A DNA stretch of 64,000 nt from Fibrobacteria bacterium (GCA_035352895.1 DAOPYN010000010.1:24188-88187); one strand, 5' to 3'; positions 35,369-64,000 are shown, counted from the stretch's first letter. The notes: generated by a model not told the origin, from the letters alone. Translations and numbers: made by a program.

Positions 35369-36717
<1,349 letters not shown>

Positions 36718-36718
<1 letters not shown>

Positions 36719-37815: not shown

Positions 37816-37816
37816 G

Positions 37817-38302: not shown

Positions 38303-38322
38303 GGAATGTCAGGAGCGGAGGC

Positions 38323-40167: not shown

Positions 40168-40209
40168 GGCGTCCTCCGTGTCACGGGCAATTCGACAGTT
40201 TCCGTAATA

Positions 40210-43863: not shown

Positions 43864-43939
43864 GGTGGCTGTAGCTCAGTTGGTTAGAGCTCCTGATTGT
43901 GGTTCAGGAGGTCGTGGGTTCAAGTCCCATCAGCCACCC
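43864..43939 (+). tRNA. tRNA-His (anticodon GTG) with encoded G-1
   Basis: G-1 pairs with discriminator C73. Acceptor GTGGCTG/CAGCCAC, anticodon loop TTGTGGT, T-arm GTGGG-TTCAAGT-CCCAT. No CCA is encoded. Confidence 0.9.
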
Positions 43940-43942
43940 TTA

Positions 43943-43980
43943 AAGAAGGCCGCCCGGTTTCGGGTGGCCTTCTTTCGTTT
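43943..43980. terminator. bidirectional rho-independent terminator (tRNA-His / pssA)
   Basis: 14-bp stem aagaaggccgcccg/cgggtggccttctt with loop gttt, followed by TTCGTTTC on the plus strand. Confidence 0.8.
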
Positions 43981-44768: not shown

Positions 44769-44807
44769 GGCCCAGTGATGTAGCAATCCGGCGGGGCCGC
44801 GAAAAGG

Positions 44808-45518
44808 TCAGGTCGCCGGTCCGATCTCCAATCGGTAGCCAGCTCCCCGGACACTGGTCAGGAGCTGGGGATTGGTCTGGTCGACCTCCAGCTTCTGGCG
44901 CAGCCGCATCAGGAAGTTGTCCACAGTGCGGGTGCTGGGAAGATTGTCCGGGGAGTACCCCCAGACCCGTTCCAGCAGATCTTCGCGGCGGACCACCTCC
45001 CCCGGATGGGTGGCGAAATCCCGCAGGATCTCGAACTCGCGGGTGGAAAGATCGATGGGCTGACCTTCCACCCAGCAGCGGAACTGCTTGAAATCGATCC
45101 GGATGCGCCCCTGCCACTCCACGACCTCCACCGCAGCCGGCGCCCGCATGGCCTTGCGACGCAGGAGGTTGCGGATGCGGGCGATCAGTTCGGCCAGGGA
45201 GAACGGCTTGGTGACATAGTCGTCGGCCCCCAGGGTGAGACCAGCCACCTTCGATGCTTCGTCGGAACGCGCCGTGAGCATCAGGATGGGGAGCTCCGCA
45301 CGCTGCGAGCGCAGTTCCCGACAGATGTCGAAGCCCGACTTCCCCGGAAGCATCAGATCCAGAAGGACGATGTCGGGCAGGAAGACCGGAAGGATCTTCA
45401 TGGCTTCCTGGCCATCGCAGGCTTCCTCCACGGAAAACCCCTCCAGTTCCAGGGTGACGCGCAATCCCGATCGGATCGAAGCGTCGTCTTCCACGACCAG
45501 GATTCTGGCTTCAGGCAT
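44808..45518 (-). CDS. OmpR-family response regulator
   Basis: Receiver domain MPEARILVVEDDASIRSGL...DLMLPGKSG... plus a winged-helix output domain (...RLEIGP). Confidence 0.9.
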   Translation of the reverse strand: MPEARILVVEDDASIRSGLRVTLELEGFSVEEACDGQEAMKILPVFLPDIVLLDLMLPGKSGFDICRELRSQRAELPILMLTARSDEASKVAGLTLGADDYVTKPFSLAELIARIRNLLRRKAMRAPAAVEVVEWQGRIRIDFKQFRCWVEGQPIDLSTREFEILRDFATHPGEVVRREDLLERVWGYSPDNLPSTRTVDNFLMRLRQKLEVDQTNPQLLTSVRGAGYRLEIGPAT

Positions 45519-47292
45519 CGATCTCCTCCACCGCCGGAAGGCGGATCTCAAATATGGTTCCGTTCCCCTCGCTGCTCTCCAAAACCACTTCGCCACCGTG
45601 AAATTCGACGTTCCTCTTCACGATGGCAAGCCCCAGGCCGGTCCCGGCAACGGTTCGGGTGAGTTCGCCTCCGCCGCGGAAGAACCGCTCGAAGACCCTC
45701 GAGTGATCCTCCGGCGGAATCCCCGGACCGTCGTCGGAGACCCGAAGCAGGGCCGATCCCCCCTGGCGACGGACCTCCAGGTGGACCTTCCCCCCGGTTT
45801 TCCCGTACTTGAACGCGTTGTCCACGAGATTGTCGATCACCGGTCGCAGGAGGGTCTTGTCTCCCACCACGGTGACAGGTTCCGTCTCGATGCGCCACTC
45901 GATGCCGCGGCGGTGGGACACGGCATCGAAGGAAGCGCCCGCCTCCCTGGCCAAGAGATCCAGTCGGAGAGGCTCCCGCACCTTGGCGGTGGGGTGGGCC
46001 TCGTCGCGGGCGAACGACAGGAGCCCGTCGATCAACCCCTGCAAGCGCCGGGCTTCCCGCAGGATGGTGGCACCGAATTCGCCGGAGCGCTCCACGCCGC
46101 GCCCTCCGGCGAGGAGTTCGGCGTACAGGGCGATGGACGTCAAGGGAGTCTTCAGTTCATGGGAAATGTTCCCGATGAAGTCGGTCTTCATGGTGAGAAG
46201 GTCCCGTTGGACCCGGATGGATCGGTTCGCCGCCGCCGTGGCCCCGACCAGCACGATCAGGGAAAGGCCCAGGAGCGCGGAGACGAAGATGGTCCGGAAT
46301 CGGGTGGCCGAGGCGTGCTCGTTCACCGACCACACGGCCACCGACCAGGAAGGGAATCCTCCCGGGACGGGCACGAGTTCGTCGGGCTCCACGGCCGGTG
46401 GTGTTCCTTCCAGACCCAGGATGTCGCCGGCGGCGTTCTTCATGCCCAGGAGGAGCTCCCGGTCCGGTCCGGTGGCCTTGGATGCCGGCACCAGTTCTGC
46501 GTTGAGGAGCCTCTCCTGGAGCGCCCTCTCGGAAAACCTCCCCACGGCCACCACCCCTCGAGGTAGATCCGGCGGGGCGAGCACCAGCCAGGTGCGACCA
46601 CCCACGTCCACCAGGTGGGTCTCGGGCCTCTTGGCGAGGGAATCGAAGACATCCGACGCCTCCTTGCGCACCTGGACCTGGACTCCTCGACGCTTCATCG
46701 CCTCCAGCTGGTCGGACAGCAACACCTTCCACTGGGGCCGTGTGGCGACATCCACCGAGATCCGTCGGGCGACCGTGTCCAACCTGGACACGAGATCGAA
46801 GGGTAGCACGTTGTCGGGCGCGTGCAGGATCACCAGGATCCAGTCTTCCAACCGCGAAAGGCGGTCGTCGGGAGCGGAACCCGCCTCCCAGATGGCGACG
46901 TACATGGCCTCGAGTCTGGCGGAATCGACGGCTCCCGAGTTCTTCTGGCGCGACCACTGCTCACCTCGGATCTCGACCGCGTCGAACCAGGGAGGTGGCA
47001 CCTGGGCGAGGCCCATTCCCACGTCCATCACCCAGCGTTCCAGCTGCACCTGGGCCTGGTTGCGCACTTCCCGACCGGCCCCCGAGAGATTTCCGGCGAC
47101 CTGGTAGGCGAGACGTTGTCGGGATTCCACCACTTGGCGACGCAGGAGGTTCTGTTCCACCCCCACGGCTCTCCACGCCAGCCAGGCGAGAACCAGGCCG
47201 GGCACCACGATGGGTACCCACACCCACCGCACCCATCCGTCCCTGGGATGCCTATTCGGGCCGGAGGAGTCCACGCCGGGATCCTTGAACAA
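45511..47292 (-). CDS. sensor histidine kinase (two TM, periplasmic sensor, HisKA-HATPase)
   Basis: H-box NISHELKTPLTSI, plus N, G1 and G2 boxes. Overlaps the RR start by 8 nt. The true start may be GTG 47232 (VRWVWVPIVV...), which would avoid a 40-nt overlap with lpxA. Confidence 0.85.
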   Translation of the reverse strand: MFKDPGVDSSGPNRHPRDGWVRWVWVPIVVPGLVLAWLAWRAVGVEQNLLRRQVVESRQRLAYQVAGNLSGAGREVRNQAQVQLERWVMDVGMGLAQVPPPWFDAVEIRGEQWSRQKNSGAVDSARLEAMYVAIWEAGSAPDDRLSRLEDWILVILHAPDNVLPFDLVSRLDTVARRISVDVATRPQWKVLLSDQLEAMKRRGVQVQVRKEASDVFDSLAKRPETHLVDVGGRTWLVLAPPDLPRGVVAVGRFSERALQERLLNAELVPASKATGPDRELLLGMKNAAGDILGLEGTPPAVEPDELVPVPGGFPSWSVAVWSVNEHASATRFRTIFVSALLGLSLIVLVGATAAANRSIRVQRDLLTMKTDFIGNISHELKTPLTSIALYAELLAGGRGVERSGEFGATILREARRLQGLIDGLLSFARDEAHPTAKVREPLRLDLLAREAGASFDAVSHRRGIEWRIETEPVTVVGDKTLLRPVIDNLVDNAFKYGKTGGKVHLEVRRQGGSALLRVSDDGPGIPPEDHSRVFERFFRGGGELTRTVAGTGLGLAIVKRNVEFHGGEVVLESSEGNGTIFEIRLPAVEEIDA

Positions 47293-48031
47293 ATTCCGTC
47301 AAGACCTTCGCCTCCGTCGAATCCGTTTGCGCCAGCTGGGCGAGGGCATCCTGGAGCAGATGGCCCCGCCGCAGCAGGATCCGCAGGCAGTCCTCGACCT
47401 CCCGGCGATCGGGGGCGTCGACGGCGCGCGCGAGGGCCACCCGGTTGAGACCCGCCCAGCGAGGGGGCTCCCCCAACGCACGGGACCAGGGAACGAGATC
47501 CCTGTCCAACCGTACGCATCCGGCCACGAAGGCGAGCTCCCCGATCCGTACGAACTGGTGGACATGGGCGCCGCCTCCGAGGAACGCGTCGCGTCCCACC
47601 TCCACATGCCCTCCCAGCTGGACCCCGTTGGCAAGCACCGTGCGCGCACCGATCCGGCAATCGTGCGCCACGTGGGAGTAGGCCAGAACCATCGCTCCGT
47701 CCTCCACCACGGTCCACCCCTCCGGAAGGGAGGATGCATGGATGGTAGCGTACTCCCCCACCCGCACCTTCGCTCCCAATCGGCATCCACCTCCGTGGTC
47801 CAGATCGCGCACCTGGGCCAATCCTCCCACCGAAGCACCTTGCCCGATCCGGGATCCCTCCCCCACGATCGCCCCTTGGCAGATCCGGGAATGGGGTTCC
47901 AGGATGCATCCCGCACCGACCTCGCAATGCGCTTCCACCACGCAGAACGGACCCACGACGCATCCGTCGCCCAGATTCGCCGAGCTGTGGACCGCGGCAC
48001 GGGAATCGATGGTCGCTGCGGCGGCCTTCAC
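47252..48031 (-). CDS. lpxA: acyl-ACP--UDP-N-acetylglucosamine O-acyltransferase
   Basis: Left-handed beta-helix hexapeptide repeats, plus the LpxA C-terminal helical domain. The likely GTG start at 48031 overlaps the fabZ stop (GTGA). Confidence 0.85.
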   Translation of the reverse strand: MKAAAATIDSRAAVHSSANLGDGCVVGPFCVVEAHCEVGAGCILEPHSRICQGAIVGEGSRIGQGASVGGLAQVRDLDHGGGCRLGAKVRVGEYATIHASSLPEGWTVVEDGAMVLAYSHVAHDCRIGARTVLANGVQLGGHVEVGRDAFLGGGAHVHQFVRIGELAFVAGCVRLDRDLVPWSRALGEPPRWAGLNRVALARAVDAPDRREVEDCLRILLRRGHLLQDALAQLAQTDSTEAKVLTEFVQGSRRGLLRPE

Positions 48032-48495
48032 ACCATCGTCGCCATCAGCTCGGCCTCGCACGAAACCTGGCCATCCACCAGGATCCGCGATTGGACGGTG
48101 GCCATGTTCCGCCGGAAGGAGACCAATTCCACCTCCAGGCGCAGGCTGTCGCCAGGACGAACCGCCCTGCGGAACCTAGCCTTGTCGATCCCCAGGAATG
48201 CCGGACGTTTTCCCTCCACATCGTGGGAAAGCATCACCAGGATGGTGGCCACCTGCGCGAGCGCCTCGATCTGGATCACGCCGGGCATCACCGGATCGGC
48301 GGGGAAATGTCCGACAAAATGCGGTTCGCCAAAGCTCGCGAGCTTCAGCCCCACGGCGCGCTTGCCCTCCTCGAATTCCAGCAGGCGGTCCACGAAGAGG
48401 AAGGGGTGACGGTGGGGAAGCACGGCCAAGACCCCCGCATGATCGAGGACGCATCCGGGGATGGAGGGCTTGGGAAGGTCGGCAAGGCGTGGCAT
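48028..48495 (-). CDS. fabZ: 3-hydroxyacyl-ACP dehydratase FabZ
   Basis: 155 aa MPRLADLP...HFPADPVMPGVIQIEALAQ... hot-dog fold. This is the only real part of the 800-aa ORF-track entry. Confidence 0.9.
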   Translation of the reverse strand: MPRLADLPKPSIPGCVLDHAGVLAVLPHRHPFLFVDRLLEFEEGKRAVGLKLASFGEPHFVGHFPADPVMPGVIQIEALAQVATILVMLSHDVEGKRPAFLGIDKARFRRAVRPGDSLRLEVELVSFRRNMATVQSRILVDGQVSCEAELMATMV

Positions 48496-48569
48496 CGAAC
48501 GTTTCCTGGATACGGGTGGGTCCGACGGAGACCCGCCGGACCCTGCAAGATAGCCGCTCGAGGCCAGCC

Positions 48570-51500
48570 TCAGGGAGCGCGCTTGTATCCGACCTTGAAC
48601 AGCTTGTTCTGGATCATGACCCGAACGTTCACGCCGTTGACCGACTGCTGGCTGTACGAAACCAGCCGCAGCATGTACACGCCCGTTGCCAACCGGCCCT
48701 TCTCGCCACCCATGCCGTTGAGGGAAAGCAGCACGGCGTATTTGCCGTTGCTTGCCACCATTCCCTCGGCGGCCAGACTGTCCCGGTCGAGCTTGAGGTC
48801 CTGCTTCCCGACGAACACTCCCAGGTTGTCGTAGGCGAGAACCTGACCGTCGAACGAAGTATTCAGTTCCACGCGCACGCCGAAGAGCCCCGTTGCCACC
48901 GCCACCGAATCCAACGATCGGAGATTGGACGCTCCGGTGCTGGACACGGGTTTGGCCTGACCGCTCCACGAGGTGGGCAGCACCCAGACGCTCAATGGAG
49001 GCAGAAGGCGCGTGGGCTTGTCCAACCCGTCGTCGACGAACACGGGCTGGGGGAAGACCGACGCCTTGTAGCGGACCGGATAGGGACCGGTAAGGACGGG
49101 AACCTTGAGGGACACATCGCCCACCGCGTTTCCAACGGCATCCTGCAAGCCCTTCGACAGACGTGCGCTGTCCCCGAAGGCTGGCAGGCCGTAGGTGGTG
49201 ACCCCGTCGGTGCAGCTGTCGCAGATCACCAGTAGGCGCGTTCCCTGGACGATGATGTGGGCCTTGGGATCCGTCGGAAGGAAAGGCTTCTGTTCCCCCC
49301 TGCGAATCACGTCGAAGAGGAACGACGGGACCGGCGCATCCTTCAGTGGCTCGGAAAGGACCAACGCGATGGTGTCGGCCGCTCCTTCCACCTGTCCGTA
49401 GGATACGAACACCGACTGGAGGACCGGAGCGATGCCATCGAGAACCACGAACGGCTGCGGCTCCAGGGGGGTGCCGTCGACGATGCTCGTGGATGTCCCC
49501 GTTCCGTTGCCGGAGGTCTTGCCCGCGGGGAATCCCGCCACGGGAATGATCGCCTCGGTGAGCCCCACCAGTCGCTTGCCGTACCCGACGCTGTCCACGG
49601 TCACGGTCACCCCCTGCCAGGTGAAGCCGAAGGTCGGGGAACCCAGCAACGGACGCTTCCAGGCCAGGCGCACGGCATCGGCCGTTCCATCGCCGTTCTG
49701 GTCCAGGATCCGCGCGGTGTCGGGAGCGCGATCGCCACCCGCCACAGGCACGTACGGAGCGGCGCCGGAAGACGCCGGGAGTTGATCGGAAGAGACCGCC
49801 CGCAGGACGGATCCCGTGATGGCCATGCGCACCAGATCGCCCGGCTCCACGCTGCCGACGGGGATGTCGAAGGTTCCGACATTCGCCCCCGCCCCGCTTG
49901 CCGGGATGGTCGTGGCGGTCGCGGGAATCGGCTCGTCGCCGGCGGCGGTCTTGCGGACCAGGTAGACCGTTTGCCCCGGGCGAAGCCCCGACACCACCGG
50001 TTCGGAGAAACGAACGGTGAGCTTGTCGGAGCCCGCGGCGAATTCGAGCTTGGCCACACCGATGGCGACGGGAGGAACCGAGTCGCGAAGATCGTAATCC
50101 TCGCGGCGCATGGATCCCTGGAGCAAGGTCAGCTTGCCCATCCCGTTGAGTCCCGTTCCCACGGTCAGTCCCGCGGCGATGTTCACGGGCAGCTGGTAGG
50201 TCGCATTGCCCAGCGACACGGCCTGCGCCCAGGAATAGGTGGAATCGACGGTCTGGATCCAACTGCCGACCACGATCTTGTCCGGAGCTTCGGCAGGTTT
50301 GCGGAATTCCCGACGGAAGACCATGGTGACCACATCGGCACGACCGTCGCCATCGCGATCGGAAAGCCAGGAATCGACGATGGGAACGGCGATCGGCTGC
50401 AGGACGATCTGGGCGGTATCTCCACCGCATTCGCTGTAGCGTCCCGGATTGCCCGCGGCGTCGACGATTCCCGACGCGGTGGCGATCGCGATGCGCGCAC
50501 CTTCGGCCACGGCTCCGGCGGCATTGCCCTGGACCACGAACACGAGGTCGGTGGTCCCGTTGCCGGAAACCACCTGGGCGGGCATCGGCGATGCGGGAGT
50601 GGTTTCCACGCCTCCGAGGAAGGTGCGGAAAGGCAGAGTGGTTCCCGCGAAGGTGACCGGCTCGCTGAAGCGGACCTTCAAGGTGTCGGTTCCCGGAGTG
50701 GTGTTTTCCACGATGGTGGCCAGGATCGGCCGAGGCCCGATCCCGTCGGAGACAGGAACGTAGGAACCATCACCCAGGACCACCTGGGTGTCTTCCGCCG
50801 GCGGACGGCGCAACGAAGCCACCACGCGGACCTCGGCGAGCGGAATCCAGGCGGGAAGTTTGGCCAGGCTCGCCCCCAGGGAAATTCCCAAAGCGGTGTT
50901 CCCTGCCAGAGGATGGATCTTCGTGGAATCCAGAGACACCGTGTCGGCACCCAGTCGGAACACCACCCGGCTCAGGCGGACCTTGGATGTATCCAGAACC
51001 GCGACGCGCACGGATCCCCCCAGAGGCTTGAACAGGATCACAGTGGAATCCGCCGACCCGTCGCAATCCTTGTCCAGGAACACGCCATTGGCGGGTTCCG
51101 GGGCATCCGGCTTGGGAGGCAGACGGAACGTGACGGGTTTGAAGAGGGCCTGCACGCCGTTTCCGATCCACGGATGCGATGCCTTCAGGGTGTCGTTGGT
51201 CAGCGGCACATCGGACCGAACCCACAGGTCCAGGACTCCGGCCACCAGGGTCGCCGAATCCAGGGCAGTCGTAGAGGTGGCCGTGGCGTAGAACTTGGTC
51301 CCGGCGACCGATTTGAGGGTCACCGTCGCACCCGACCAGGAATCCGTGGCGTCCGGAACGGTTCCGTTCTTGGAGAGGATCAGGTGGACGGGCATGGCCA
51401 CCGTGATGAACGTGTCGATCTTGGAATCCGGCACGAACCAGAGTTGAGCACGCGGCTTGCCCACCTTCATGAGGGCGGAATCGATGACCGTCTTCCCGTT

Positions 51501-54269: not shown

Positions 54270-54449
54270 GGCGAACCTCTTCAGCGACGGCGACACGAAC
54301 GGTCTCGAACGACAGGGCCACGGCCTCCCTATGAAGGAAACGCGAAGCCACATAAAGATTTACCATGATTTTGGTCGCAGGAGGGGCGATTCTGGTTGAT
54401 TCCAGTGGCAAATCGTTCTCGCACGGAGCACGAACCACCCCTGAATCAC

Positions 54450-55229
54450 TCATTCGGCAAGTCGTTGTCCCACCTGGAGATGCAATGCGTGCCCCGCATC
54501 CACCACATCGATCTTCCCCTGAGGAATCCCTCCACAGCGCAAATAGAGGTCGCCAATCAGGTCCAACGCCTTGTGGGCGGCACATTCCCCGGGAATCCGG
54601 GGGACGCCCCCCGTCCAGACCTCTTGCCGGGAATCCACCCCCAGAACCGCAGCCAGGTCTGCCTCCTCCGGCCCCACGTCCCCACCAGGGAACAAACGAC
54701 CGCAATCGGGGGAAGCTCCAGCCAACAAGCCCCGGTTCCGGGCCTGGACAAACTCGCGGGCGGTGACGAAGGTCCTGGCCGACAACAGATCCGGCAAGGC
54801 CTCCGCGTCTCCCTGCCAGGTTTCCTCTCCCTGCGGCCCCCGACTCCACGTCACCCGAAGATCCAAACGTGAGGAGGGTTCGATCCGGATCCGGCCACGC
54901 GCATCGGCCTGTTCGAGGATCGATCCAGGCCCGGGAACCACCAAGGGAGGGTTTGGAGAGCCCGTGGCCAGGATCGCCTCCTTCCAGGCCAGGGCCGAAC
55001 CATCGAACAGGGGAAGATCGGGGTGGGTCGCCTCCAGGATCCATCCGTCGACCCCCAGGATGCAGATGGCCGCCAGGAAGTGCTCGAGGGGGCCGACCTC
55101 GAAGACTCGAGTGCAACGGAGGGACGTGTCGTGAGCCGCTCTCAGTCGCCGCGGCGAGAATTCCAACCGGGAACCGATGCGCACGAGCGCCACCCCGGGA
55201 TCGGAACGTCGGAACCGAAGCGTATTCAT
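54450..55229 (-). CDS. lpxC: UDP-3-O-acyl-N-acetylglucosamine deacetylase
   Basis: 259 aa MNTLRFRRSDPGVALVRIG...PLEHFLAAICILGVDGW...LFDGSAL...AHKALDLIGDLYLRCGG...DAGHALHLQV matches LpxC zinc-site motifs. It is hidden in the frame of a 1111-aa spurious ORF-track entry. Confidence 0.85.
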   Translation of the reverse strand: MNTLRFRRSDPGVALVRIGSRLEFSPRRLRAAHDTSLRCTRVFEVGPLEHFLAAICILGVDGWILEATHPDLPLFDGSALAWKEAILATGSPNPPLVVPGPGSILEQADARGRIRIEPSSRLDLRVTWSRGPQGEETWQGDAEALPDLLSARTFVTAREFVQARNRGLLAGASPDCGRLFPGGDVGPEEADLAAVLGVDSRQEVWTGGVPRIPGECAAHKALDLIGDLYLRCGGIPQGKIDVVDAGHALHLQVGQRLAE

Positions 55230-55321
55230 TTCCCCGGTGTGAAATCCCGGTCCAGCAAAGGAAAAGGCCACCCCCTGGACGGGAGGCGGCCTTTGGATCG
55301 ATCCGAATCCGGGGGGAGTCT

Positions 55322-58300
55322 TCACTGCTTGCGCTGGTAGCCGACCTTGAAGACCTTGTTCTGCAGCATCGCACGGACCTGGACTCCGTTGACGTTCTGC
55401 TTGCCGTAGCTGATCAGGCGGATCATGTAGACACCGCTGGAAACAGGCTTGCCCACCATGTTCGAACCGTTCATGACCACTGCCAGTGTGTACTTGCCTC
55501 CCACCAGGAGACCTCTGGCGCGAAGGTCCTCGATGTCGATGAGGATCTTCTGCGTTCCCACGTAGACCCCGAGGTTGTCGTAGGCGAGGAAGTCCGCATC
55601 GAAGGATGTGTTCATCTCCACCACCAGACCGTAGAATCCGCTCTGTCCGATGGCGTTGGTGATCACCGGATTGCCGGCCTGGGCCACACCGTCCACCGTG
55701 GTCCCGATGGGGGTCCACACCGCATCCGGCAGGTTGCTGGCCGGAAGGATGAAGGCCGAGACGGGAGGCAGCTTGCGCACAGGAGCATCGTCGGGAACCA
55801 CGTTGCTCTGCACCCCACCCTTGGGGTACAGGTTCACGCGATAGCGAGTGGGATAAAGGCCGTTGAAGACGGTCACCCAGACGCTCGAATCTCCCACCGC
55901 ATTGCCTTGGGCGTCGACGATCCCCGCCTGCAGGCGAGCGCGATCCGGCCAGCTGGGCAATCCGAAGGTCGTGGGAGTCTCGATGCATGCGTTGCAAGCG
56001 ATGGTGAACGGTCCCGTGCCCTGGACGCTGGCCAGACCATCCGTAGCGGCGAAGGGCTTGCGGACGCCGCGGCTTTCGATGCCGAGGAAGGAATTGACCT
56101 GCGGCATGGCGATGGGCTCGCTTGCCCAGACCCGGATGGTGTCGGCGGAACCTTCCACCTGGCCGTAGCTCACGAAGACGGAATCGATGACCGGAGGCAC
56201 CCGATCCTTCAGGGGGAAGGTCTGGGCCGGCTCCAAGGCTCCGGCCACCAAGCTCTGGGTGGTTCCCAAGGCGGATGGATCCCCTGTGACCATGGGAAGG
56301 AACCCGACCACAGGCAGGGTGAGTGTCACCGAATCCTTCGCACCATGGGTCTTGCTGTCCACGGACACCGGAGTGCCGCCCCAAGTGAAGGTGTAGAGTG
56401 GATTGCCACGCAAGGGGCTGGCGTAGAACAACCGGACCGCATCGGCAGTACCATCTGCGTTCAGATCCAGCACCAAGGCGGAATCCGGAACACGGTCGCC
56501 ACCTTGCACCACCACGCGCGGAGGATGCGCCACCGTGGTGGGGATCACGCCTCCGATGCCGACCAATCTCGAGGTCGCGTTGGGTAGGTAGACACTGTCG
56601 CCCACGGCGGGATACGGATTGGCCGAAGACGGAACGGAGAAGACCCAGTTGGTCGATGCCGCCATACCGATGGCAGTCAGACCCAACGCTTGGCCACTCT
56701 GGTGCATCAGGTAGGATCCGCCGGCGAGCTGGGAAACGGGCTCGGAGAAGACCACCCGCAGGGTGTCGGCGTCCTTGCCGAAGCGCAGCGCGGCGGACAT
56801 GGGAATGGGCCCCACGCTGTCGACCAGATCCACGACCTGGTTCTGCATGGGACTGCGGAAGGTGAGCTGTCCCTGTCCGGCCAGCCCCAGACCCGTGGTC
56901 TTGCCGACTTCGAAGGGGACGATGTCCACCGAGAAGTTGATGCTGTCCGCGGAGCTGCCCAGCTTGACCGAACGCGTCCCGCAGAAGTCGCACCAGTTGG
57001 AGACCACGAGGGAATCCGGGAAGTGGGCGGTCTTGGAAAGCTTGGCGGCGAAGCGGACATGGATCTGGTCGGCCGCGCCATTGCCATCGACATCCACGAT
57101 CGCGGCGGAAACCATGGGAATCGGTTTCACATACACCAGGAGGGTGTCGGTGGCTCCGGCACAGTCGTCGGCGTGGTTGCCGGCGAGGTCGACGATGTCC
57201 GCCGAGGGATCGATCCTCACCACGGCCTTCTCCACCAGCAATCCGTCGTTGCCCTGGACATCCAGCTCGATGGTGTCTGCGGCAACTCCGATCTTGGCAT
57301 TGAGAACCGTCGCGGCAGTCTTCTTCCAGACGCCGCCGTTCCACACGAGAAGCGGGAAGACGGGCTTGGTGTAGACCACCGGTTCGCTCACCACGAAACG
57401 CAAGGTGTCGCGGGGATTGCCCAGGGAGTTTTCCCAGATCACCGCACGCGGAACCAGACGCGGCCCGACGCGGTCGGCGATGCCGAAGACGGTATCGGTC
57501 GTTCCGGTCACCAAGGCGTTCACCACGGTGTCGCCGAGGGAAAGCCGCTTGAGGCTGAGCCGAATGGAGGCGGCGCCACTGGGAGTGGTTCCTGGGATCG
57601 GATTGGAGAGCGCGACATCCAGGATGGAGGAATCGGCATCCACCACCTTCGTGGAAGCGGCAGGAATGAGCTGGCTGGCGAAGGGCAGCTTCACGGATAC
57701 ATCCGTGACCTGGATCGAGTCCTTCAAACGGCGCACCGGATCCTTCTTGAAGAAGATCCGCACGTGGTCCGCCGCACCGTCGCAATCCACATCGCGGAAA
57801 GCGGCGGAATCGACGCTGGGCGTGGGCGGAACCGGGGGCGGCATGAAGGTGATGGGCTGGAAGGTGGCGGCATCGTCCAACGCTGGGTTGGTTGCGGCGA
57901 TGCTACCTGCCGAGACAGGGCCATCGGACAGGACCACCAGATCGACGGATGCGGTCGAACGGAGAATGTCCACGGAAGCGATGGCGGAATCGGGATTGGT
58001 GGGCAGTGCCAAACGCAATCCCGGAGCCAAAGTGAGGGTGGCGGTGAAGGGAGGCGCCGAAGCATCCAGCGCCGGAGCTCCATTGCCGTCCACCAGAGTC
58101 AGGGTGATCGGAGCGGATTGCCCCAGATACCGGAAGATGGAGTCGCCAGCGGCATAGGTCCACTTCAAGGCTTCCTTGGGAGGCATCACCTTGACCCGGG
58201 CCGAGTCGCGCACCACGACCTGCGATTTCAGGAAGAAGACGCTTCCCACCGGATCGAAGGTCCTTGCCCAGAAGACGCCGTTGGCGGAATCCAGGTGGAG

Positions 58301-61300
58301 GACAATGGACTTGGCGGAAGGATCGCCACCCACCACGGACACTCCGCCCAAGGCGGTGGTGATCTCGATACCGATGTCGGAGCTGGTGTCCACCAGGTTG
58401 CCCACGCTGTCGAACACCGTGACCTTCACCGGTACCCGCGCGTTCTGGGTCATGAAGCCGGTGTCGGCCAGGGTCACCGAAGGCGGATCCTGGAATTGGG
58501 CCATGTAGGGAAGGCCGGGACGGATCAGGATCTTGCCGTCGCCGGAGAAGCTCGCCTTCTTGCCGCCCACGCCCACGGTGTCCTTGCCGTTGGCGCCCAC
58601 GATCTGGGGACCCGCCACGGTGAAGAACACGTCGTAGGAGGTTTCGCCCTTCACGTTGGTGCGGAAGATGTCGGAAGGTTCCACCAGGGTGCCACCCTTG
58701 GCCACGTCATGGAGCCCGGTGGCCCGGATCTGGACCATCTGCAACGTGCCCGAGTACAGGTTGGCGGTCTTCTTGCCGGCATCGAGCGAATCGCGGAAGG
58801 AGGTGTCGGCGGCGACCACCTTGCCCAGGCCGGTGCAGACCTTGGCCGCGGAATCCTTGCTGGACAAGCCCAGGTAGGTCAGGACGCCGGTGACGTTGTT
58901 GCGGCAGTTGTATTTGATGCTGCTGACCACGGAGAGCACCGCGTCGCGGGAAACCACGGGTCGCACCCGCATGACCACGGTCTGTCCCACGCGGGCCGAA
59001 TTGATCTGGGCTCCGGTGGTCTTGTCGAAGAACATGACGTTCATGTCGAAACCGTCGTTCTTGTAGAGCCACGTTCCCATGTTGGAATACACCGTGGTGC
59101 CCGTGGCCGTCTGGGCCACCACCATCACCTGGTAGCGCGAGCGCGGGTCGGGCTTGACCGGGAGCTTCGCTTCGAAGGTGTTGGATCCTGGCTTGGGGAC
59201 GCCGCTGATGATCGAGGTCAGCGCGAGGTCCTTGGGATTGTAGGGGAGGATGGGGGTGTCGTCGTCGGAAACCGCCGAAGCGTAGGAGAAGATGTAGTAC
59301 TGGTAGTTGACGAAGTTGCCACCGGTCTCGACCAGGTCGAAGGAGAAACGGATGGTGTTGGCGACGGAGTCGTACTTGGCCTGGGTTCCGTCCTTGAGCA
59401 CGATGCTCGGTGCGGTCCCCTTGGACTTGGACTTGGCTCCGACGTCGGCGATCGAGCCATCGGGGTCGATCCCCCACCGGCCATGGTCCAGGATCACGGA
59501 ATCCACGCCCGGGTCCTCCCAGACGGGCTCGAGGAACTTGGGGCTCTTGGGATCGACGGACTGGAACGCCACGGACTTGATGAACCAGTTGGTCTGCTTG
59601 CGCACGTCCTTCTTGGCGATGGTGTCGATGGTCCCCAGGGTGTCGGTCCAGGTGGCGCGCAGATTCTGCACCAAGACGGAATCCAAGGCCGTCCACTGCT
59701 GCTGGTTGGCCTGATCCATGATGGGGATGGTGTCGCCGGGCTGCACGCCCGCCGGCAACTGGTTGTTGTTCGTGCCGACGACGCCCTTGAGCAGGCCGAG
59801 CACGGAATAGTTCTTGGTGGGCAGTTTGGCCGGAGGCACGGCGGGGACGGAGAGTTCCCATCCATTGAAGGGGAAGTTCCGTTCACCCTTCTGGTACTGG
59901 ATGTTGGCCTGGCTCCAGTACTGGATGCTGTCCTTGAACGGGGTGGCCAGGTTGATGTAGGTGCCCGTGGTGGCACCCGGCGGGGTGTACTGGGTGGCCT
60001 GGAAGTTCCAGGTCAGTTTCTGCGTCTGTACGTTCACCTGCAACCGGGGCTCCGGGAAGACCGCCTCCGACCGGGTGATGGTGGTCATGGCGGAATCCGT
60101 CACCTTCATGGCGGTGAGGGCGACCTTCTCGGGGAAGATCGCGAAGGTGTTGTTGTAGATGCCGTCGGTGTACTTGGAGATCAGGTCGACGTTCGAGAAG
60201 TAGGTCTTGAAGTTTTCGGTCTTGAGACCGGTCTTGGACTTGTTGTAGTCCAGGTACATGTTGGTGATGAGGTTGTTGTACACCAGGTGCTGGGTGGTCG
60301 CCCGCCACATCCCGTACCCGAAGATGGACGCGTTCTGGTAGAACGTGTTGTTGTAGATCTTGTAGGGAACGGTGACGAAATCCTTGCCGTACATGAATCC
60401 GCCCGCGTGGTTGGCGGCTTCCGAATTCCCCTTCACCGCGGTGGGCGCGGCCGTGGGGCAGCCCGCGGTGGCGGACTTCGCGCAGCTCATCCACTGGGCG
60501 TAGTCGCGGTTGTAGTTGCTGTACACCAGGTTGTGGTGGAAGGTGGACCCCAGGTCCCAATCCGACTCCACGTAGACGCCCCAGACGTTGTTGGCGAGCT
60601 CCGAGTACTCCACCATGTGCTGCCCGGAGTATCCGAATTGGCTGTTGGGCAGGAGCATGTCCTTGTCCAGGTCGGCCTGGTTGTTGCGCGCCATGGCGCC
60701 GCCCTTGTTGCGACCGAAGATGTACAGCGCGGAAAAGCAGTTCTGGATCTTGGTGTTGCGCAAGGTGACTTCGCGCGAAAGGAACAGGTTGACGCCGAAA
60801 TTGCCAAGGAGCGTCGGATACCCGGAAGGATCCCAGATGTTCAGGTGTCCGATGGGCAGGGGGGCCACGCCGTCGATCACCACGTTGTCCAGCGTGATGT
60901 TGGAACTCTGCTTGATCAGGATGACGCCGTTTTGCTGGTAGCCGCTGGTGGAGTACGGATTGGAGGAGTTCTTGCTTCCTCCGACCGTGGCCGTGTTGTT
61001 GATGGGCCACTGCTTCCAACCCGCGGGCTGGTTGACGGAATCCGCCGCCGTGAAGAACGGCCCCGCCAGCAGGCCCTGGTCCTGGAACTGGATGACCGGC
61101 TTGACACCCAAGGCACCCTTGATGGTGATGTTCGATTTCTCGTAGATCAAGAGCGTGTTGGGCAGCTTGTACAAGGGGTCCGACAGGCTGATCACGCAAC
61201 CGGTGTTGGCCGGGCAGGCGTTCACCGCGTCCTGGATGGTCGCGTGCGTGCCAGGGACCTTGAATTGCGCCTGCGCAAAGGCCGTGGATGCCATGGAAAG

Positions 61301-61369
61301 CAATCCGCCCAGCAGAAATACTCCAAACTTCCGACGAAAATCGGACCAGACAGGCAATCCCGCAAGCAT
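55322..61369 (-). CDS. giant secreted cell-surface protein (2015 aa), paralog B of 48570..54269
   Basis: Signal peptide ...RRKFGVFLLGGLLSMASTAFAQA. N-terminal about 250 aa colinear with paralog A (NACPANTGCVISLSD...NPYSTSGYQQNGVIL...LRNTKIQNCFSALYIFGRN). Ig-like repeat array and DVDCDGAADH-type motifs. C-terminus ...SGVYMIRLISYGKQNVNGVQVRAMLQNKVFKVGYQRKQ. Confidence 0.8.
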   Translation of the reverse strand: MLAGLPVWSDFRRKFGVFLLGGLLSMASTAFAQAQFKVPGTHATIQDAVNACPANTGCVISLSDPLYKLPNTLLIYEKSNITIKGALGVKPVIQFQDQGLLAGPFFTAADSVNQPAGWKQWPINNTATVGGSKNSSNPYSTSGYQQNGVILIKQSSNITLDNVVIDGVAPLPIGHLNIWDPSGYPTLLGNFGVNLFLSREVTLRNTKIQNCFSALYIFGRNKGGAMARNNQADLDKDMLLPNSQFGYSGQHMVEYSELANNVWGVYVESDWDLGSTFHHNLVYSNYNRDYAQWMSCAKSATAGCPTAAPTAVKGNSEAANHAGGFMYGKDFVTVPYKIYNNTFYQNASIFGYGMWRATTQHLVYNNLITNMYLDYNKSKTGLKTENFKTYFSNVDLISKYTDGIYNNTFAIFPEKVALTAMKVTDSAMTTITRSEAVFPEPRLQVNVQTQKLTWNFQATQYTPPGATTGTYINLATPFKDSIQYWSQANIQYQKGERNFPFNGWELSVPAVPPAKLPTKNYSVLGLLKGVVGTNNNQLPAGVQPGDTIPIMDQANQQQWTALDSVLVQNLRATWTDTLGTIDTIAKKDVRKQTNWFIKSVAFQSVDPKSPKFLEPVWEDPGVDSVILDHGRWGIDPDGSIADVGAKSKSKGTAPSIVLKDGTQAKYDSVANTIRFSFDLVETGGNFVNYQYYIFSYASAVSDDDTPILPYNPKDLALTSIISGVPKPGSNTFEAKLPVKPDPRSRYQVMVVAQTATGTTVYSNMGTWLYKNDGFDMNVMFFDKTTGAQINSARVGQTVVMRVRPVVSRDAVLSVVSSIKYNCRNNVTGVLTYLGLSSKDSAAKVCTGLGKVVAADTSFRDSLDAGKKTANLYSGTLQMVQIRATGLHDVAKGGTLVEPSDIFRTNVKGETSYDVFFTVAGPQIVGANGKDTVGVGGKKASFSGDGKILIRPGLPYMAQFQDPPSVTLADTGFMTQNARVPVKVTVFDSVGNLVDTSSDIGIEITTALGGVSVVGGDPSAKSIVLHLDSANGVFWARTFDPVGSVFFLKSQVVVRDSARVKVMPPKEALKWTYAAGDSIFRYLGQSAPITLTLVDGNGAPALDASAPPFTATLTLAPGLRLALPTNPDSAIASVDILRSTASVDLVVLSDGPVSAGSIAATNPALDDAATFQPITFMPPPVPPTPSVDSAAFRDVDCDGAADHVRIFFKKDPVRRLKDSIQVTDVSVKLPFASQLIPAASTKVVDADSSILDVALSNPIPGTTPSGAASIRLSLKRLSLGDTVVNALVTGTTDTVFGIADRVGPRLVPRAVIWENSLGNPRDTLRFVVSEPVVYTKPVFPLLVWNGGVWKKTAATVLNAKIGVAADTIELDVQGNDGLLVEKAVVRIDPSADIVDLAGNHADDCAGATDTLLVYVKPIPMVSAAIVDVDGNGAADQIHVRFAAKLSKTAHFPDSLVVSNWCDFCGTRSVKLGSSADSINFSVDIVPFEVGKTTGLGLAGQGQLTFRSPMQNQVVDLVDSVGPIPMSAALRFGKDADTLRVVFSEPVSQLAGGSYLMHQSGQALGLTAIGMAASTNWVFSVPSSANPYPAVGDSVYLPNATSRLVGIGGVIPTTVAHPPRVVVQGGDRVPDSALVLDLNADGTADAVRLFYASPLRGNPLYTFTWGGTPVSVDSKTHGAKDSVTLTLPVVGFLPMVTGDPSALGTTQSLVAGALEPAQTFPLKDRVPPVIDSVFVSYGQVEGSADTIRVWASEPIAMPQVNSFLGIESRGVRKPFAATDGLASVQGTGPFTIACNACIETPTTFGLPSWPDRARLQAGIVDAQGNAVGDSSVWVTVFNGLYPTRYRVNLYPKGGVQSNVVPDDAPVRKLPPVSAFILPASNLPDAVWTPIGTTVDGVAQAGNPVITNAIGQSGFYGLVVEMNTSFDADFLAYDNLGVYVGTQKILIDIEDLRARGLLVGGKYTLAVVMNGSNMVGKPVSSGVYMIRLISYGKQNVNGVQVRAMLQNKVFKVGYQRKQ

Positions 61370-61533
61370 TCAGTCTCCTAACGTGGCAATGGAACGGATT
61401 TCTCCGCTCGATAGAACCGAAGCAAGCTACCCCCACCCCATCGATTTCGCTGTGGAAATTTTGGCTGCCGGATCATTGTCGGAACGACAATGGATCCCAG
61501 AGAGCCCAATCCACCCGGTACCCCAATGGGGGA

Positions 61534-62457
61534 TCAGCCCTCTGGCGCCCCGCGGGTTCCCGAATCCCTTCGACCGGACCCCGGACGGGCGGGAAACCCG
61601 CGAAGAACCGTTCCCACCGGCCACGAGCGGGTGACTCCGGCACGGGCGGCCACCACGCAGTCGTCGCCCAGTCGGACGTGATCGGCGAAACCCGCCTGCC
61701 CACCCACCAGGCACCGGTCCCCCAGGATCACCGACCCTGCCAGTCCGGCTTGGCCCGCCAACACGGATCCATCACCGATCCGGCAGTTGTGGCCCACCTG
61801 GATCTGGGCGTCCAGGTGACAGTCGCGACCGATCCGGGTCGGATCGAGCAATCCCGCCGCGATCTGGCATTGAGCTCCGATCCTGGAGCCCGCCCCCACC
61901 TCCACCCCACCCCAGTGCGGCAAAGGCCTGCGAACCCCGTCGAGGAGAACCAACCCGAATCCGGGCGCTCCCACCACGGTTCCGTCCCCGATGCACACCC
62001 CTTCGCCCAACCGCACACGTGGATGGATCACCGCTCCCGCACCGAGGGCCACTCCGTGGCCCAACTCCGCCGTCCGGTGCACCATTGCGTGGCGCGCCCT
62101 CTCGCCGAAGCGGTGGGCCAGCTCCAAGGGAGACAGCCAATCTTCGGGAGCCTCGGGAGGACGGCAAGGTCCTTCCAGGATGTCCAGGAAGACGCGGGAA
62201 GGCTCCGGGACCTCGACGAACCTTGGGACAAAATCCGACATCAGGTGTTCCCTCTGGCGGGAACTCCCCACCAGAACCTGCGCCCGGCAAGCGCGGACCT
62301 GCAGGGGACTCGCCTGCGCAGGCAGCACGCAAAGATCGCCCGGACCGGCCTCCTCCAGTCCCGCCAGACGAAACAAGGGGACCCACTCCATCGGAAGGGT
62401 CCCCAGTTCCGGCGACAACTCGCCCCACCCGCCCACGCCAGACAGAGCCAGCGCCAT
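61534..62457 (-). CDS. lpxD: UDP-3-O-(3-hydroxyacyl)glucosamine N-acyltransferase
   Basis: N-terminal LpxD domain plus a hexapeptide-repeat beta-helix (GHNCRIGDGSVLAGQAGLAGSVILGDRCLVGGQAGFADHVRLGDD...). Confidence 0.85.
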   Translation of the reverse strand: MALALSGVGGWGELSPELGTLPMEWVPLFRLAGLEEAGPGDLCVLPAQASPLQVRACRAQVLVGSSRQREHLMSDFVPRFVEVPEPSRVFLDILEGPCRPPEAPEDWLSPLELAHRFGERARHAMVHRTAELGHGVALGAGAVIHPRVRLGEGVCIGDGTVVGAPGFGLVLLDGVRRPLPHWGGVEVGAGSRIGAQCQIAAGLLDPTRIGRDCHLDAQIQVGHNCRIGDGSVLAGQAGLAGSVILGDRCLVGGQAGFADHVRLGDDCVVAARAGVTRSWPVGTVLRGFPARPGSGRRDSGTRGAPEG

Positions 62458-62463
62458 GGACGG

Positions 62464-63051
62464 CTACTTGGTCTTGGTCTTCGCGGGGGCGGCGGGGGCG
62501 ACCGGTGCGTCCTTGGCGGGAGCATCGGTGGAGATGAAATCGGCGTTCAGGCGATCCAGCACCTTCTGCGTCAGATCCCAGTCCTCCTTGCCCACGTAGA
62601 AGACCGCACCGGAGGCGCGATCCAGGACCAAGTCGTAGCCTTCGGCCTTGGCCACCTGTTGGGCGATCCCCCGGATCTTCTGGATGATGGGCGAGGTGAA
62701 CTTCTCGTTCTCCTTGACCAGCTTGCCGTCCTTGCCGTAGAGGGTCTGGACCATCTTCTGGAGATCGGCCTGCTTGGCCATGAAATCGCTCTGGAGGTTG
62801 CGCTTGCGCTCCTCCGAGAGCATCATGCCCTGCTTGTCGAACTTCTCCTTGAGGGTGGCCAGTTCCTTCTGCTTGTCGGCGACGTCCTGCTCCCAGGCGG
62901 CGACCTGCTTGTCGAAGCGTTCCTGGGCCTCCTTGGTGCCCTTGAAACCGTCGAATATGGCCTTGGTGTCCACCAATCCGATCCGCGGAGCGGCGTCGGC
63001 GGCGAAGACGGAAATCGACAACGCGAGGATGCTCAGGAAAACGTTTCGCAT
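62464..63051 (-). CDS. skp: periplasmic chaperone Skp (OmpH)
   Basis: Signal peptide MRNVFLSILALSISVFAADA, then Skp/OmpH coiled-coil pattern (IGLVDTKAIF...QKELATLKEKFD...). ATG 63051. Confidence 0.85.
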   Translation of the reverse strand: MRNVFLSILALSISVFAADAAPRIGLVDTKAIFDGFKGTKEAQERFDKQVAAWEQDVADKQKELATLKEKFDKQGMMLSEERKRNLQSDFMAKQADLQKMVQTLYGKDGKLVKENEKFTSPIIQKIRGIAQQVAKAEGYDLVLDRASGAVFYVGKEDWDLTQKVLDRLNADFISTDAPAKDAPVAPAAPAKTKTK

Positions 63052-63062
63052 GGGGTGGCCTT

Positions 63063-64000
63063 TCAGAAGGGCTGTTCGATGGTGAAGTTCGCGTGCATCC
63101 CCTTGTTGGGGATGGATTGGCCGTAGCTGTTCTCGCCGTCGTCCAGGCCCCAGGCGAAGTCGAACCCGAGGATGCCCATCATGGGGATGTTCAACCGGAA
63201 ACCGAAGCCCCAATCCCGCTTGAGGTTGCCCAGATCGATCTCCTCCCAGGGATTGGGAAGGGTCTTGACGGAGTAGTCCACATTCCTTCGCAAGGCCTCT
63301 CCGAAGACGTTCCCCGCGTCCATGAAGGCGATCAGGTAGAACAGCTGGTCGGCCACCGGATAGCGGAGTTCCGCCGTGCTGGAAAGGAAGGCGCGCCCCA
63401 CCCGGAACAATCCCAGCGACGAGGCGTCGTATCCGCGCATCTTGCCCTGGTAGCCCAGAAGCCCGCCTTCGCGGTACAGCGAAGACTCCTGCAGCACGTC
63501 GCCCCCCTGGATGCCGCCCTGCATCTCCATGCCCAGGACGAACTTGCCCACCGTGGGGAACCACCACTTGGCCACCGTGGACCCCTGGTGGTAGTCGAAA
63601 TCGCCGCCGAAGATCCCGCCCACCCGGCGGTAGGACAGCTGGAACACGCTGCCGGAGGTGGGGAACAGAGGCAGGTCCTTGTCGTCGCGGGTGAGCGTGA
63701 CGGAAACCGACGATTCGATGCCATCCCTTCGCAGGAGCCCCGCGTCGTCGGAGTTCGCTCCGCGATAGCGGTTCAGGGAGAAGCCGTACCCGGTCCCGAT
63801 GGAGAAATAGTCGTCCGGCCAGGTGAGGCGGCGCCCCAGGGAAAGATCGAAGCCACGGGACTCGTAGTCGTAGGAGTCGTCGTATTGGTCGGTCTGGTGG
63901 GTCCAGAACCCGGAGATTCCCACGCGGGTGGGCGAATCCATGAACCAGGGCTCGGTCAGTCCCAGGCGAATGCTCTGCTTGTAGCCGCCGTAGTCGATGT
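63063..64000 (-). CDS. bamA: outer membrane protein assembly factor BamA (C-terminal beta-barrel part; gene continues beyond window end)
   Basis: Omp85 barrel sequence ending ...GMHANFTIEQPF (C-terminal Phe). It lies immediately upstream of skp, which is conserved synteny. Confidence 0.85.
   Translation of the reverse strand, partial: IDYGGYKQSIRLGLTEPWFMDSPTRVGISGFWTHQTDQYDDSYDYESRGFDLSLGRRLTWPDDYFSIGTGYGFSLNRYRGANSDDAGLLRRDGIESSVSVTLTRDDKDLPLFPTSGSVFQLSYRRVGGIFGGDFDYHQGSTVAKWWFPTVGKFVLGMEMQGGIQGGDVLQESSLYREGGLLGYQGKMRGYDASSLGLFRVGRAFLSSTAELRYPVADQLFYLIAFMDAGNVFGEALRRNVDYSVKTLPNPWEEIDLGNLKRDWGFGFRLNIPMMGILGFDFAWGLDDGENSYGQSIPNKGMHANFTIEQPF

Follow-up and report, generated by a model that had tools for sequence, protein, structure and literature searches.

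Why should two genes for giant, apparently secreted proteins lie inside the gene cluster that builds the outer membrane and its lipid A? This question is raised by a 64,000-nt stretch of DNA from a Fibrobacteria bacterium (GCA_035352895.1 DAOPYN010000010.1:24188-88187), hereafter the window, to whose whole length all coordinates refer. The cluster occupies positions 43980-64000 and lies entirely on the minus strand. We refer to the two giant genes and their products as G1 and G2, to the loci of relatives by L numbers and to the proteins of relatives by P numbers. The original prediction had read the minus-strand order as bamA(partial)-skp-lpxD-G1-lpxC-G2-fabZ-lpxA-histidine kinase (HK)-response regulator (RR)-pssA, and had suggested that a cell-surface coat is co-transcribed or co-regulated with lipid A and outer-membrane protein assembly. 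Open reading frames (ORFs) and family matches bore out the gene order; the observation itself was confirmed, and the interpretation as a whole is partly supported. LpxC, an antibiotic target, carries out the committed step in the synthesis of lipid A. The explanation that we favour, and consider probable rather than secure, is that paralogous surface proteins of ~200 kDa have become fixed in the outer-membrane biogenesis operon, and that lpxC has been wired to the end of a giant gene by an attenuated coupling.

The identities of the enzyme genes were supported to differing degrees. The product of lpxC (UDP-3-O-acyl-GlcNAc deacetylase; 54450-55325, minus strand) matched PF03331 at E 3.3e-29, with 102.7 bits against a gathering cut-off of 27, which places it in the family; it fell below the cut-offs of the NCBIfam equivalogs because the protein is divergent. 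Its motifs EH, ARTF, AAHKALDLIGD (HKxLDxxGD) and GH are intact, invariant across the clade alignment and aligned with E. coli LpxC (4mdt), and the zinc and catalytic residues E78/H79, T191, H238, K239, D242, D246 and H265 (E. coli numbering) are all present. FabZ (48028-48495, minus strand) likewise scored above its cut-off (NF000582, 162.9 bits versus 113). The lpxD call did not: LpxD (NF002060, E 3.5e-50) was the top NCBIfam match at 171 bits, under the curated cut-off of 207. That match is confined to the C-terminal LbH part (model positions 143-314), the N-terminal ~120 aa are divergent, and a Pfam scan of the product did not find PF04613, the N-terminal LpxD uridine-binding domain. We therefore describe this gene (61534-62457, minus strand), whose place is kept in relatives, as an lpxD-like N-acyltransferase (LbH). 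LpxA (47252-48061, minus strand) was above gathering for PF00132 (LbH) and PF13720 (Acetyltransf_11) and slightly short of the NF003657 cut-off (E 7.4e-65; 218.7 bits versus 226). Its ORF as listed overlaps fabZ by 34 nt, compared with 4 nt in relatives. Among these genes, and on the same strand, lie the ORFs of G1 (55322-61369; 2015 aa) and G2 (48570-54269; 1899 aa).

How widespread is this arrangement? Loci carrying homologues of the giants, or the divergent LpxC specific to this clade, were drawn from NCBI, JGI, ENA and Logan assemblies; the organisms with lpx-linked giants are uncultured Fibrobacteria, known here from metagenome-assembled genome and metagenome sequences alone. The idea that the insertion is lineage-wide was upheld, as giants were linked to lpx genes in relatives of three layouts, and a giant lay directly upstream of lpxC at 16 of 16 distinct junctions. 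The split layout of the window, bamA-skp-lpxD-G1-lpxC-G2-fabZ-lpxA-HK-RR, was found in three independent assemblies, namely the window, L001 (on a 4.4-Mb contig) and L010, with giants 80-85% identical. A tandem layout, (clpB-)bamA-skp-lpxD-G-G-lpxC-fabZ-lpxA-HK..., was found in L016 and L018, and L008 and L013 are partial tandem loci. L017 has the tandem order without an lpxD call, so that lpxD is not always part of the block; a 243-aa gene with no Pfam match lies there on the opposite strand between skp and the first giant (L017:2785-3516). In L002, L003 and L014 two giants are preceded by tuf-secE-nusG in place of bamA-skp-lpxD, and the giant-lpxC linkage persists in L002 despite the missing genes. 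Finally, L007, L021 and L022 share the single layout skp-lpxD-G-lpxC-fabZ-lpxA-HK-RR-pssA. Relative to the window, LpxC identity reaches a minimum of 36% across the 16 junctions, and the linked giants go down to 25-30%. The next-nearest LpxC homologues, L019 and L020 (29-33% identity), lie in compact lpxD-lpxC-(fabZ-)lpxA blocks without giants.

The canonical operon, bamA-skp-lpxD-fabZ-lpxA(-lpxB), has the same housekeeping genes in the same order and orientation as the window, including the fabZ-lpxA overlap. It is compact, whereas in the giant clade lpxD and lpxC are separated by 6-13 kb of surface-protein genes; only in the genus of the window are lpxC and fabZ also separated by such a gene. 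That fabZ adjoins lpx genes is a widely conserved pattern, which has been taken as functional coupling (PMC5007114, PMC13333357), and the pairing of lpxC with fabZ is itself widely conserved (PMC5007114). Judged by gene order, what is conserved is the presence of one or two giants that separate lpxD from a contiguous lpxC-fabZ-lpxA, and the ancestral order is bamA-skp-lpxD-G(-G)-lpxC-fabZ-lpxA-HK-RR-pssA. The bracketing of lpxC by two giants, as originally described, is present in the window, L001 and L010 but is not general, since elsewhere the giants lie between lpxD and lpxC. On the same comparison it is a derived rearrangement, peculiar to the genus of the window, which breaks the lpxC-fabZ adjacency.

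The breadth of this distribution bears on whether the giants might be misassembled, pseudogenes, or recent mobile or horizontally acquired cargo that disrupts the operon, which we find hardly credible. The GC content dips to 0.58-0.59 over the parts encoding the N-terminal head domains described below, and neither giant belongs to a database family, as cargo of this kind might look. However, the frames of 1899 and 2015 aa are intact, >45 full-length homologues were found, the GC content at third codon positions (GC3) of the giants (0.82-0.85) resembles that of the genes beside them, and the gaps hold no transposase, integrase or flanking repeats. The layout is identical in three independent assemblies of congeners, and is therefore not an assembly artefact, and it is conserved across the clade. 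Misassembly, horizontal gene transfer and a mobile-element origin were rejected on the grounds of GC3, intact frames, the three assemblies and synteny.

The junction between a giant and lpxC gave the main new result. In the window, the G1 stop codon TGA (55324-55322) and an in-frame lpxC GTG (55325-55323) form a GTGA overlap (55322-55325, minus strand). Intergenic gaps of 74-180 nt had been predicted, and this was correct for lpxD-G1 (164 nt), lpxC-G2 (180 nt) and G2-fabZ (74 nt) but not for G1-lpxC, where a 4-nt overlap is most likely in place of 92 nt. An in-frame [A/G]TGA stop/start overlap was present at 14 of the 16 distinct junctions, and lpxC was in frame +2 relative to the giant at all 16. 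The distance from the giant stop to the conserved GxGFHTG motif was 65, 68 or 71 nt, and 110 nt in L017, all differences being multiples of three, and most LpxC orthologues of the clade were called at 288-297 aa, that is, with an N-terminal extension. Two shorter lpxC starts, ATG 55229 (the gene caller's choice for P0054) and GTG 55271, are less likely than the overlapping GTG because of the length of the orthologues, the conservation of the overlap and the restriction of indels in this segment to multiples of three.

Within the first ~23 codons of lpxC lies a terminator-like element (55255-55294, minus strand), consisting of a hairpin (55263-55294), AAAGGCCGCCTCCC-GTCCA-GGGGGTGGCCTTTTCCTTT, and a U-rich tract (55255-55269); the alternative GTG start at 55271 falls in the 3' arm of the hairpin. 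A 51-nt stretch at this hairpin had a minimum free energy (MFE) of -26.5 kcal/mol (z -3.6). All 16 junctions carry a GC-rich stem of 10-14 bp followed by a T-rich tail, which is the sequence signature of an intrinsic (Rho-independent) terminator or attenuator. In an alignment of the 16 sequences over 10 consensus pairs, 95.5% of cells were paired, compared with 82.7% in shuffles (0/500 as high) and 49-61% in slid registers, and six of the pairs showed compensatory changes. The T-tract also has a coding role, as it translates to the Phe/Ser-rich first strand of LpxC (AFSF, AFSL, AFFV and similar).

Because the lpxC start overlaps the giant stop, there is no room for an lpxC promoter, and lpxC transcripts must therefore start upstream and cross the terminator-like element. 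At the level of sequence, this shows lpxC to be without an independent transcription start and makes its co-transcription with the preceding giant close to unavoidable. The co-transcription originally suggested is thus well founded for lpxC, and our terminator scan gave no strong terminators isolating the giants from the lpx genes, but the coupling is probably attenuated by terminator-like hairpins that the suggestion had missed. An operon-internal leaky terminator combined with an overlapping stop and start is a classical means of unequal expression within one operon. The junction resembles such operons in having a hairpin and U-tract between an upstream cistron and enzyme genes, and in the stop/start overlap. 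It differs from classical attenuated operons in that the terminator-like element is inside the coding sequence of the downstream essential gene, lpxC.

We propose that each giant would be a strongly expressed unit with its own promoter in a conserved upstream region and a long 5' untranslated region (UTR). The majority of transcripts would stop at the hairpin and a fraction would read through, and the leaky hairpin terminators would thereby give a high giant-to-enzyme ratio; lpxC, together with fabZ-lpxA in the window, would rely on read-through. Translation of lpxC would occur by termination-reinitiation at the overlap, and ribosomes crossing and melting the hairpin might favour read-through. 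Synthesis of the committed lipid A enzyme would in this way be slaved to synthesis of the surface protein. The placement of the giants and the wiring of lpxC suggest that coat-protein and lipid A synthesis are coupled.

What kind of proteins are the giants? As had been predicted, they are paralogues; the similarity extends over their whole length, with 35% identity across 1165 columns (BLASTP, E 2e-137) and 30% across the N-terminal ~820 (E 1e-80). No family match at E <= 0.01 came from Pfam and NCBIfam scans of whole G1 and G2, the sole result from 600-aa pieces was a weak Beta_helix match (E 0.01) in the N-terminal 600 aa of G1, and a profile of 36 members of the giant family found no match among PDB sequences. 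Among 1.84 billion representative proteins, only 266 clusters (50% identity) were related to the head-plus-stalk half at E <= 1e-3, from which we conclude that the family is real, sharply bounded and rare. On the evidence of these searches, it is small and mainly restricted to Fibrobacterota.

AlphaFold models of G2, built on family alignments, were confident (pLDDT 83.3 for aa 1-1000 and 84.1 for aa 900-1899) and, together with fold matches, support the earlier description of the giants as secreted beta-helix/immunoglobulin (Ig)-repeat proteins. The modelled G2 comprises a signal peptide (aa 1-36), a beta-helix head (aa ~40-560), an Ig-like stalk with three DxDxDG...FSEPV modules (aa ~575-1760) and a C-terminal domain (CTD) that is FlgD-Ig/CTD-like (aa ~1770-1899). 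G1, as the paralogue of the modelled protein, has the same layout of signal peptide, beta-helix head, Ig-like stalk and basic C-terminal FlgD-Ig/CTD-like domain. In the model the stalk is all-beta and resembles beads on a string. Each of its three modules, of ~220-240 aa, opens with D-x-[DN]-x-D-G-x-x-D and contains FSEPV, and the DxDxDG motifs are Ca-binding-like in sequence. The top structural matches of the stalk were Ig-like domains of GH2 enzymes, intimin/invasin, the S-layer proteins SbsC and SbsB, alpha-2-macroglobulin and PorU, and a Foldseek search of the C-terminal G2 model against PDB found nothing beyond generic Ig arrays.

The head is a right-handed parallel beta-helix (pectin-lyase fold) with three-stranded coils, and its fold raises the possibility that the giants act as enzymes (lyase, hydrolase or epimerase) on O-antigen, capsule or exopolysaccharide, either at the surface or in the periplasm. 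The link to lpx genes would then reflect glycan remodelling of the envelope and not the anchoring of a coat. The head matches polysaccharide lyase and hydrolase structures, PL6 being an example class, and its charged residues are strongly conserved, both of which are in keeping with an enzyme. The resemblance is one of fold only (9-17% identity), however, and adhesins without enzymatic activity also often have beta-helix heads; among the fold matches were PfbA and tailspike-like binders. No catalytic constellation could be mapped, searches with Pfam, NCBIfam and PDB profiles gave no sequence match to lyase or hydrolase families, and the 1300-aa Ig stalk with its CTD-like tail fits a displayed surface protein. 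We consider an enzymatic role improbable as the whole account of these proteins; it is compatible with the explanation that we favour, and does not exclude it. The same head occurs in P0123-P0133, proteins of ~750 aa with a signal peptide and a short unrelated tail, whose heads are 43-50% identical to that of G2 and nearer to it than the G1 head is. These could be head-only paralogues or fragments on short contigs; an impression by eye that such relatives end in a classical type IX secretion system (T9SS) CTD was ruled out, as NCBIfam gave no match.

The closest known counterparts of the giants are TfsA and TfsB, which form the S-layer of Tannerella forsythia and are exported by the T9SS, with a C-terminal T9SS domain (PMC4175972). 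Both pairs are large paralogues from the FCB superphylum with a signal peptide and Ig-like beta-sandwiches; the TfsA and TfsB genes lie side by side, and the giants are likewise a pair. TfsA and TfsB are O-glycosylated at the Bacteroidota sequon D(S/T)(A/I/L/V/M/T) (PMC8550257), of which the giants carry 33 (G1, 8.3 expected from shuffles, z 8.7) and 24 (G2, 6.8 expected, z 6.8). None of 27 other proteins of the window exceeded z 2.6, family members carry 20-46 sequons each, and 19 alignment columns hold a sequon in at least half of 36 members. Unlike the Tannerella proteins, to which they show no detected sequence similarity, the giants are larger (1900-2000 aa), possess a beta-helix head and have a CTD that scores below threshold. 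To our knowledge, the tfsAB genes are not embedded in an lpx operon. SprB and RemA are very large, repeat-rich surface proteins of Bacteroidota that depend on Sec and the T9SS; they differ from the giants in their repeat types, a type B CTD, a role in gliding and the lack of a link to lipid A genes.

The G1 orthologues in L001 and L010 are 84-85% identical, and between the window and these two loci LpxC is 58-61%, LpxD 67% and LpxA 72-75% identical, each lower than the giants. From these sequences, the lpx enzymes are evolving faster than neighbouring genes in the lineage of the window; BamA, Skp, FabZ and RR are 88-95% identical between the same congeners. The slow divergence of the giants and their enrichment in sequons would fit a major structural surface component and not a fast-evolving adhesin, and the giants probably dominate the surface of these organisms.

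A link between surface protein and lipopolysaccharide (LPS) has a mechanistic precedent. In Porphyromonas gingivalis, PorU removes the CTD by cleavage and attaches the cargo to A-LPS, which PorZ delivers (PMC10202324). The PorU/PorZ system would therefore supply a reason for linking a surface protein with LPS, although the P. gingivalis cargo genes are scattered and, unlike the giants, not coupled to lpxC. A PorU homologue (T9SS sortase; E 2.4e-64 for a partial product of 622 aa) is encoded in the congener L001, upstream of both bamA (~4 kb) and G1 (8 kb). It is a 1303-aa Peptidase_C25 protein, with its C-terminal 622 aa within the locus (L001:3-1871), upstream of DUF547-clpB-bamA; the counterpart of this region lies beyond the window. 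The last ~130 aa of the giants align family-wide on YDN.G..V ... W(N/D)G....G..V.SGVY..R. A profile of 27 family C-termini matched the FlgD Ig domain (3osv, E 6.5e-5), the PorZ CTD (5m11 residues 708-741, E 0.0067) and the PorU CTD (E 0.54). The last 90 aa have an isoelectric point of 9.9, compared with ~6 for the mature part, and a basic terminal domain of Fibrobacter has been proposed as a T9SS signal (PMC6851124), which the basic C-terminus of the giants matches by analogy. We propose that the giants would be exported by Sec and then by the T9SS, attached to LPS by PorU, and assembled into a glycosylated coat or adhesin layer comparable to TfsA/TfsB. LPS anchoring and an S-layer are no more than suggested by the weak FlgD-Ig and T9SS-CTD matches, the PorU homologue near the cluster in a congener and the TfsA/TfsB analogy. 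If the giants are attached to LPS, this would explain the selection that has kept them beside lipid A genes.

Several observations weigh against a functional coupling of coat and lipid A, and some of them fit an alternative that we regard as unlikely, though as the main rival. On that alternative, a large gene for an adhesin or enzyme entered the space between lpxD and lpxC a single time in an ancestor, was duplicated and has been kept by descent; the giant exploits a constitutively transcribed essential operon and has no functional tie to lipid A, the hairpin ends the transcription of a highly expressed gene in the ordinary way, and lpxC is sustained by leaky read-through. The copy number and position of the giants vary by lineage (single, tandem or split), and the distant homologues in L004, in the Chitinispirillia loci L005/L006 and in L009 are not linked to lpx genes. 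These have in common only the head and proximal stalk, again as a tandem pair in Chitinispirillia. Given this variable placement relative to lpxD and lpxC and these unlinked distant members, the linkage could be historical. At the junctions, the U-tracts are broken by C or G, with a weak tract in L018. L010 has lost the overlapping lpxC start (L010:10028; the stop is TAA and the overlapping codon GTA), leaving as its sole start a GTG within the 3' arm of the hairpin. L017, with its divergent spacing of 110 nt, has 12 consecutive G residues separating its hairpin from the core of LpxC (L017:15685-15800), a stretch that may be prone to slippage or may reflect an assembly error. We deduce terminator function, read-through and promoters from sequence, and a sigma-70 promoter scan found 0 sites, with no sigma-70 consensus in the upstream regions of the giants. 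As to export, G1 and G2 themselves matched no T9SS CTD model (TIGR04183 and PF18962 among the NCBIfam and Pfam models), and single family members matched FlgD, PorU, PorZ and TIGR04183 with every score under the curated cut-offs, the best TIGR04183 score of the relatives being 19.7 bits against a cut-off of 23 (E 6e-4). The evidence for T9SS genes in L001 covers 26 kb of that genome, and the sequon excess may come partly from the structural motifs DSV.P and DTL.V.FSEP.

Passive retention, however, does not readily account for the other features of the cluster. The linkage has been kept across deep divergence and rearrangements, the L002 giants still abut lpxC in a locus without bamA-skp-lpxD, and the giants evolve more slowly than the lpx enzymes between which they lie. 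The conservation of overlap, frame and hairpin, with compensatory changes, likewise argues for more than a passive history, and we therefore retain the attenuated coupling of lpxC to a surface giant as the preferred explanation.

A more specific version of this coupling can be envisaged, although we hold it to be doubtful. Here the giants would be a T9SS-exported, O-glycosylated, two-component surface layer covalently anchored to LPS, and the hairpin at the lpxC start would act as a translation-sensing attenuator. Melting of the terminator would require that ribosomes complete the 2000-codon coat gene and start again at [A/G]TGA; lpxC, followed by fabZ-lpxA, would then be transcribed, and lipid A flux would be set by the synthesis of coat protein. 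The control of LpxC is known as mainly post-translational, through FtsH/LapB/YejM proteolysis (PMC13333357). Translation-sensing attenuation, if true, would control the committed LPS step at the level of transcription and translation, replacing or supplementing FtsH/LapB proteolysis. LpxC regulation is known almost only from Proteobacteria, and the Fibrobacteria clade thus offers a different control logic that can be tested. T9SS cargo, LPS attachment, leaky terminators and overlapping cistrons are each already known; what is new is the combination of giants fixed in a lipid A and outer-membrane protein operon with an lpxC hard-wired through a terminator in its own coding start. We found nothing in the literature on lpx gene organization in Fibrobacterota. 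The locus provides genomic evidence for an operon-level balance between a major surface protein and its probable lipid anchor, and defines a new, rare family of giant surface proteins.

The non-coding DNA upstream of the giants contains candidate control elements. Non-coding stretches of 160-330 nt precede each giant, and they contain blocks that do not vary between species. In the lpxD-G1 intergenic region (61370-61533, minus strand), an alignment of the window, L001 and L010 revealed an inverted repeat or hairpin, GGATCCATTGTCG-TTC-CGACAATGATCC (61470-61497), whose stem varies with compensation in L001 and L010, and a 27-nt block, GGGGTAGCTTGCTTCGGTTCTATCGAG (61407-61433), nearly invariant in the three species. 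The repeat and the block could be an operator, a 5' UTR structure or a promoter element. The G1 ribosome-binding site, AGGAG, lies at 61373-61382. The lpxC-G2 intergenic region (54270-54449, minus strand) contains the conserved motif GTGCTC-N5-GAGAACGATTTG (54407-54431), an invariant TCATGGTAAATCTTTA (54353-54368) and the G2 ribosome-binding site (54267-54282). A motif of the form GTGCTC-N5-GAGAACG(A/G)TT(C/T)G recurs 135-215 nt upstream of giant starts in L008, L016, L017 and L018, with 1-3 mismatches to AGAGAACGATTCGTG; among random 300-nt windows, 0.6% contain a match with <=3 mismatches. The motif is a candidate promoter element or binding site for a regulator, and the HK/RR pair could act on it. 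A reading of the conserved upstream blocks as sigma-54 or extracytoplasmic function (ECF) promoters was ruled out, as spacing and consensus do not fit.

Further hairpins follow giant genes elsewhere. An 11-bp GC-rich hairpin lies after the G2 stop, ~22 nt before the fabZ start (48518-48543, minus strand; 51-nt stretch, MFE -25.8 kcal/mol), with two compensatory changes in L001; the window has a weak T-tract here, and those of L001 and L010 are better. The tandem loci L016 and L018, and L002, carry a canonical terminator after the first giant. The terminator scan of the window returned 9 sites compared with 12.8 expected; its T-run rule leaves out the hairpin between G2 and fabZ, and the junction hairpin featured in it only as a weak site of 6 pairs. 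Rfam over 43000-64000 detected one tRNA only, and no leader or riboswitch in the gaps.

The remaining genes of the cluster are also on the minus strand. The 3' part of bamA (63063-63998), which runs past the window end, matched Omp85 (PF01103, E 3.3e-36) and positions 436-728 of the BamA model TIGR03303. The gene for the OmpH-family chaperone Skp (62464-63051; PF03938, E 2e-29) starts 11 nt past the bamA stop. Downstream of lpxA lie a PhoR-like HK (45511-47292), an OmpR/PhoB-family RR (44808-45596) and pssA (43980-44786), which come after lpxA in every relative.

A tRNA gene on the plus strand (43865-43938) lies between pssA and downstream glycosyltransferase genes; the transcription unit that begins at the giants or before them probably ends there. 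Beyond the tRNA gene, on the minus strand, a series of envelope and lipid genes (35369-43785) includes a polyprenyl-phosphate-type GT2 (43072-43785), a GT2/sugar-transferase fusion (41480-43396), a TPR protein, accB (37817-38302), pilT (36718-37815) and accC (35369-36718). A GT2-GT2-accA neighbourhood also lies behind pssA in L002 and L017. Elsewhere the window encodes a GH5 cellulase (8310-9938), a GAF-GGDEF diguanylate cyclase (11350-13716) and a protein that carries the N-methylation motif of type IV pilins (4625-5986), all of which are usual for Fibrobacterota and have no relation to the giants or the lpx genes.

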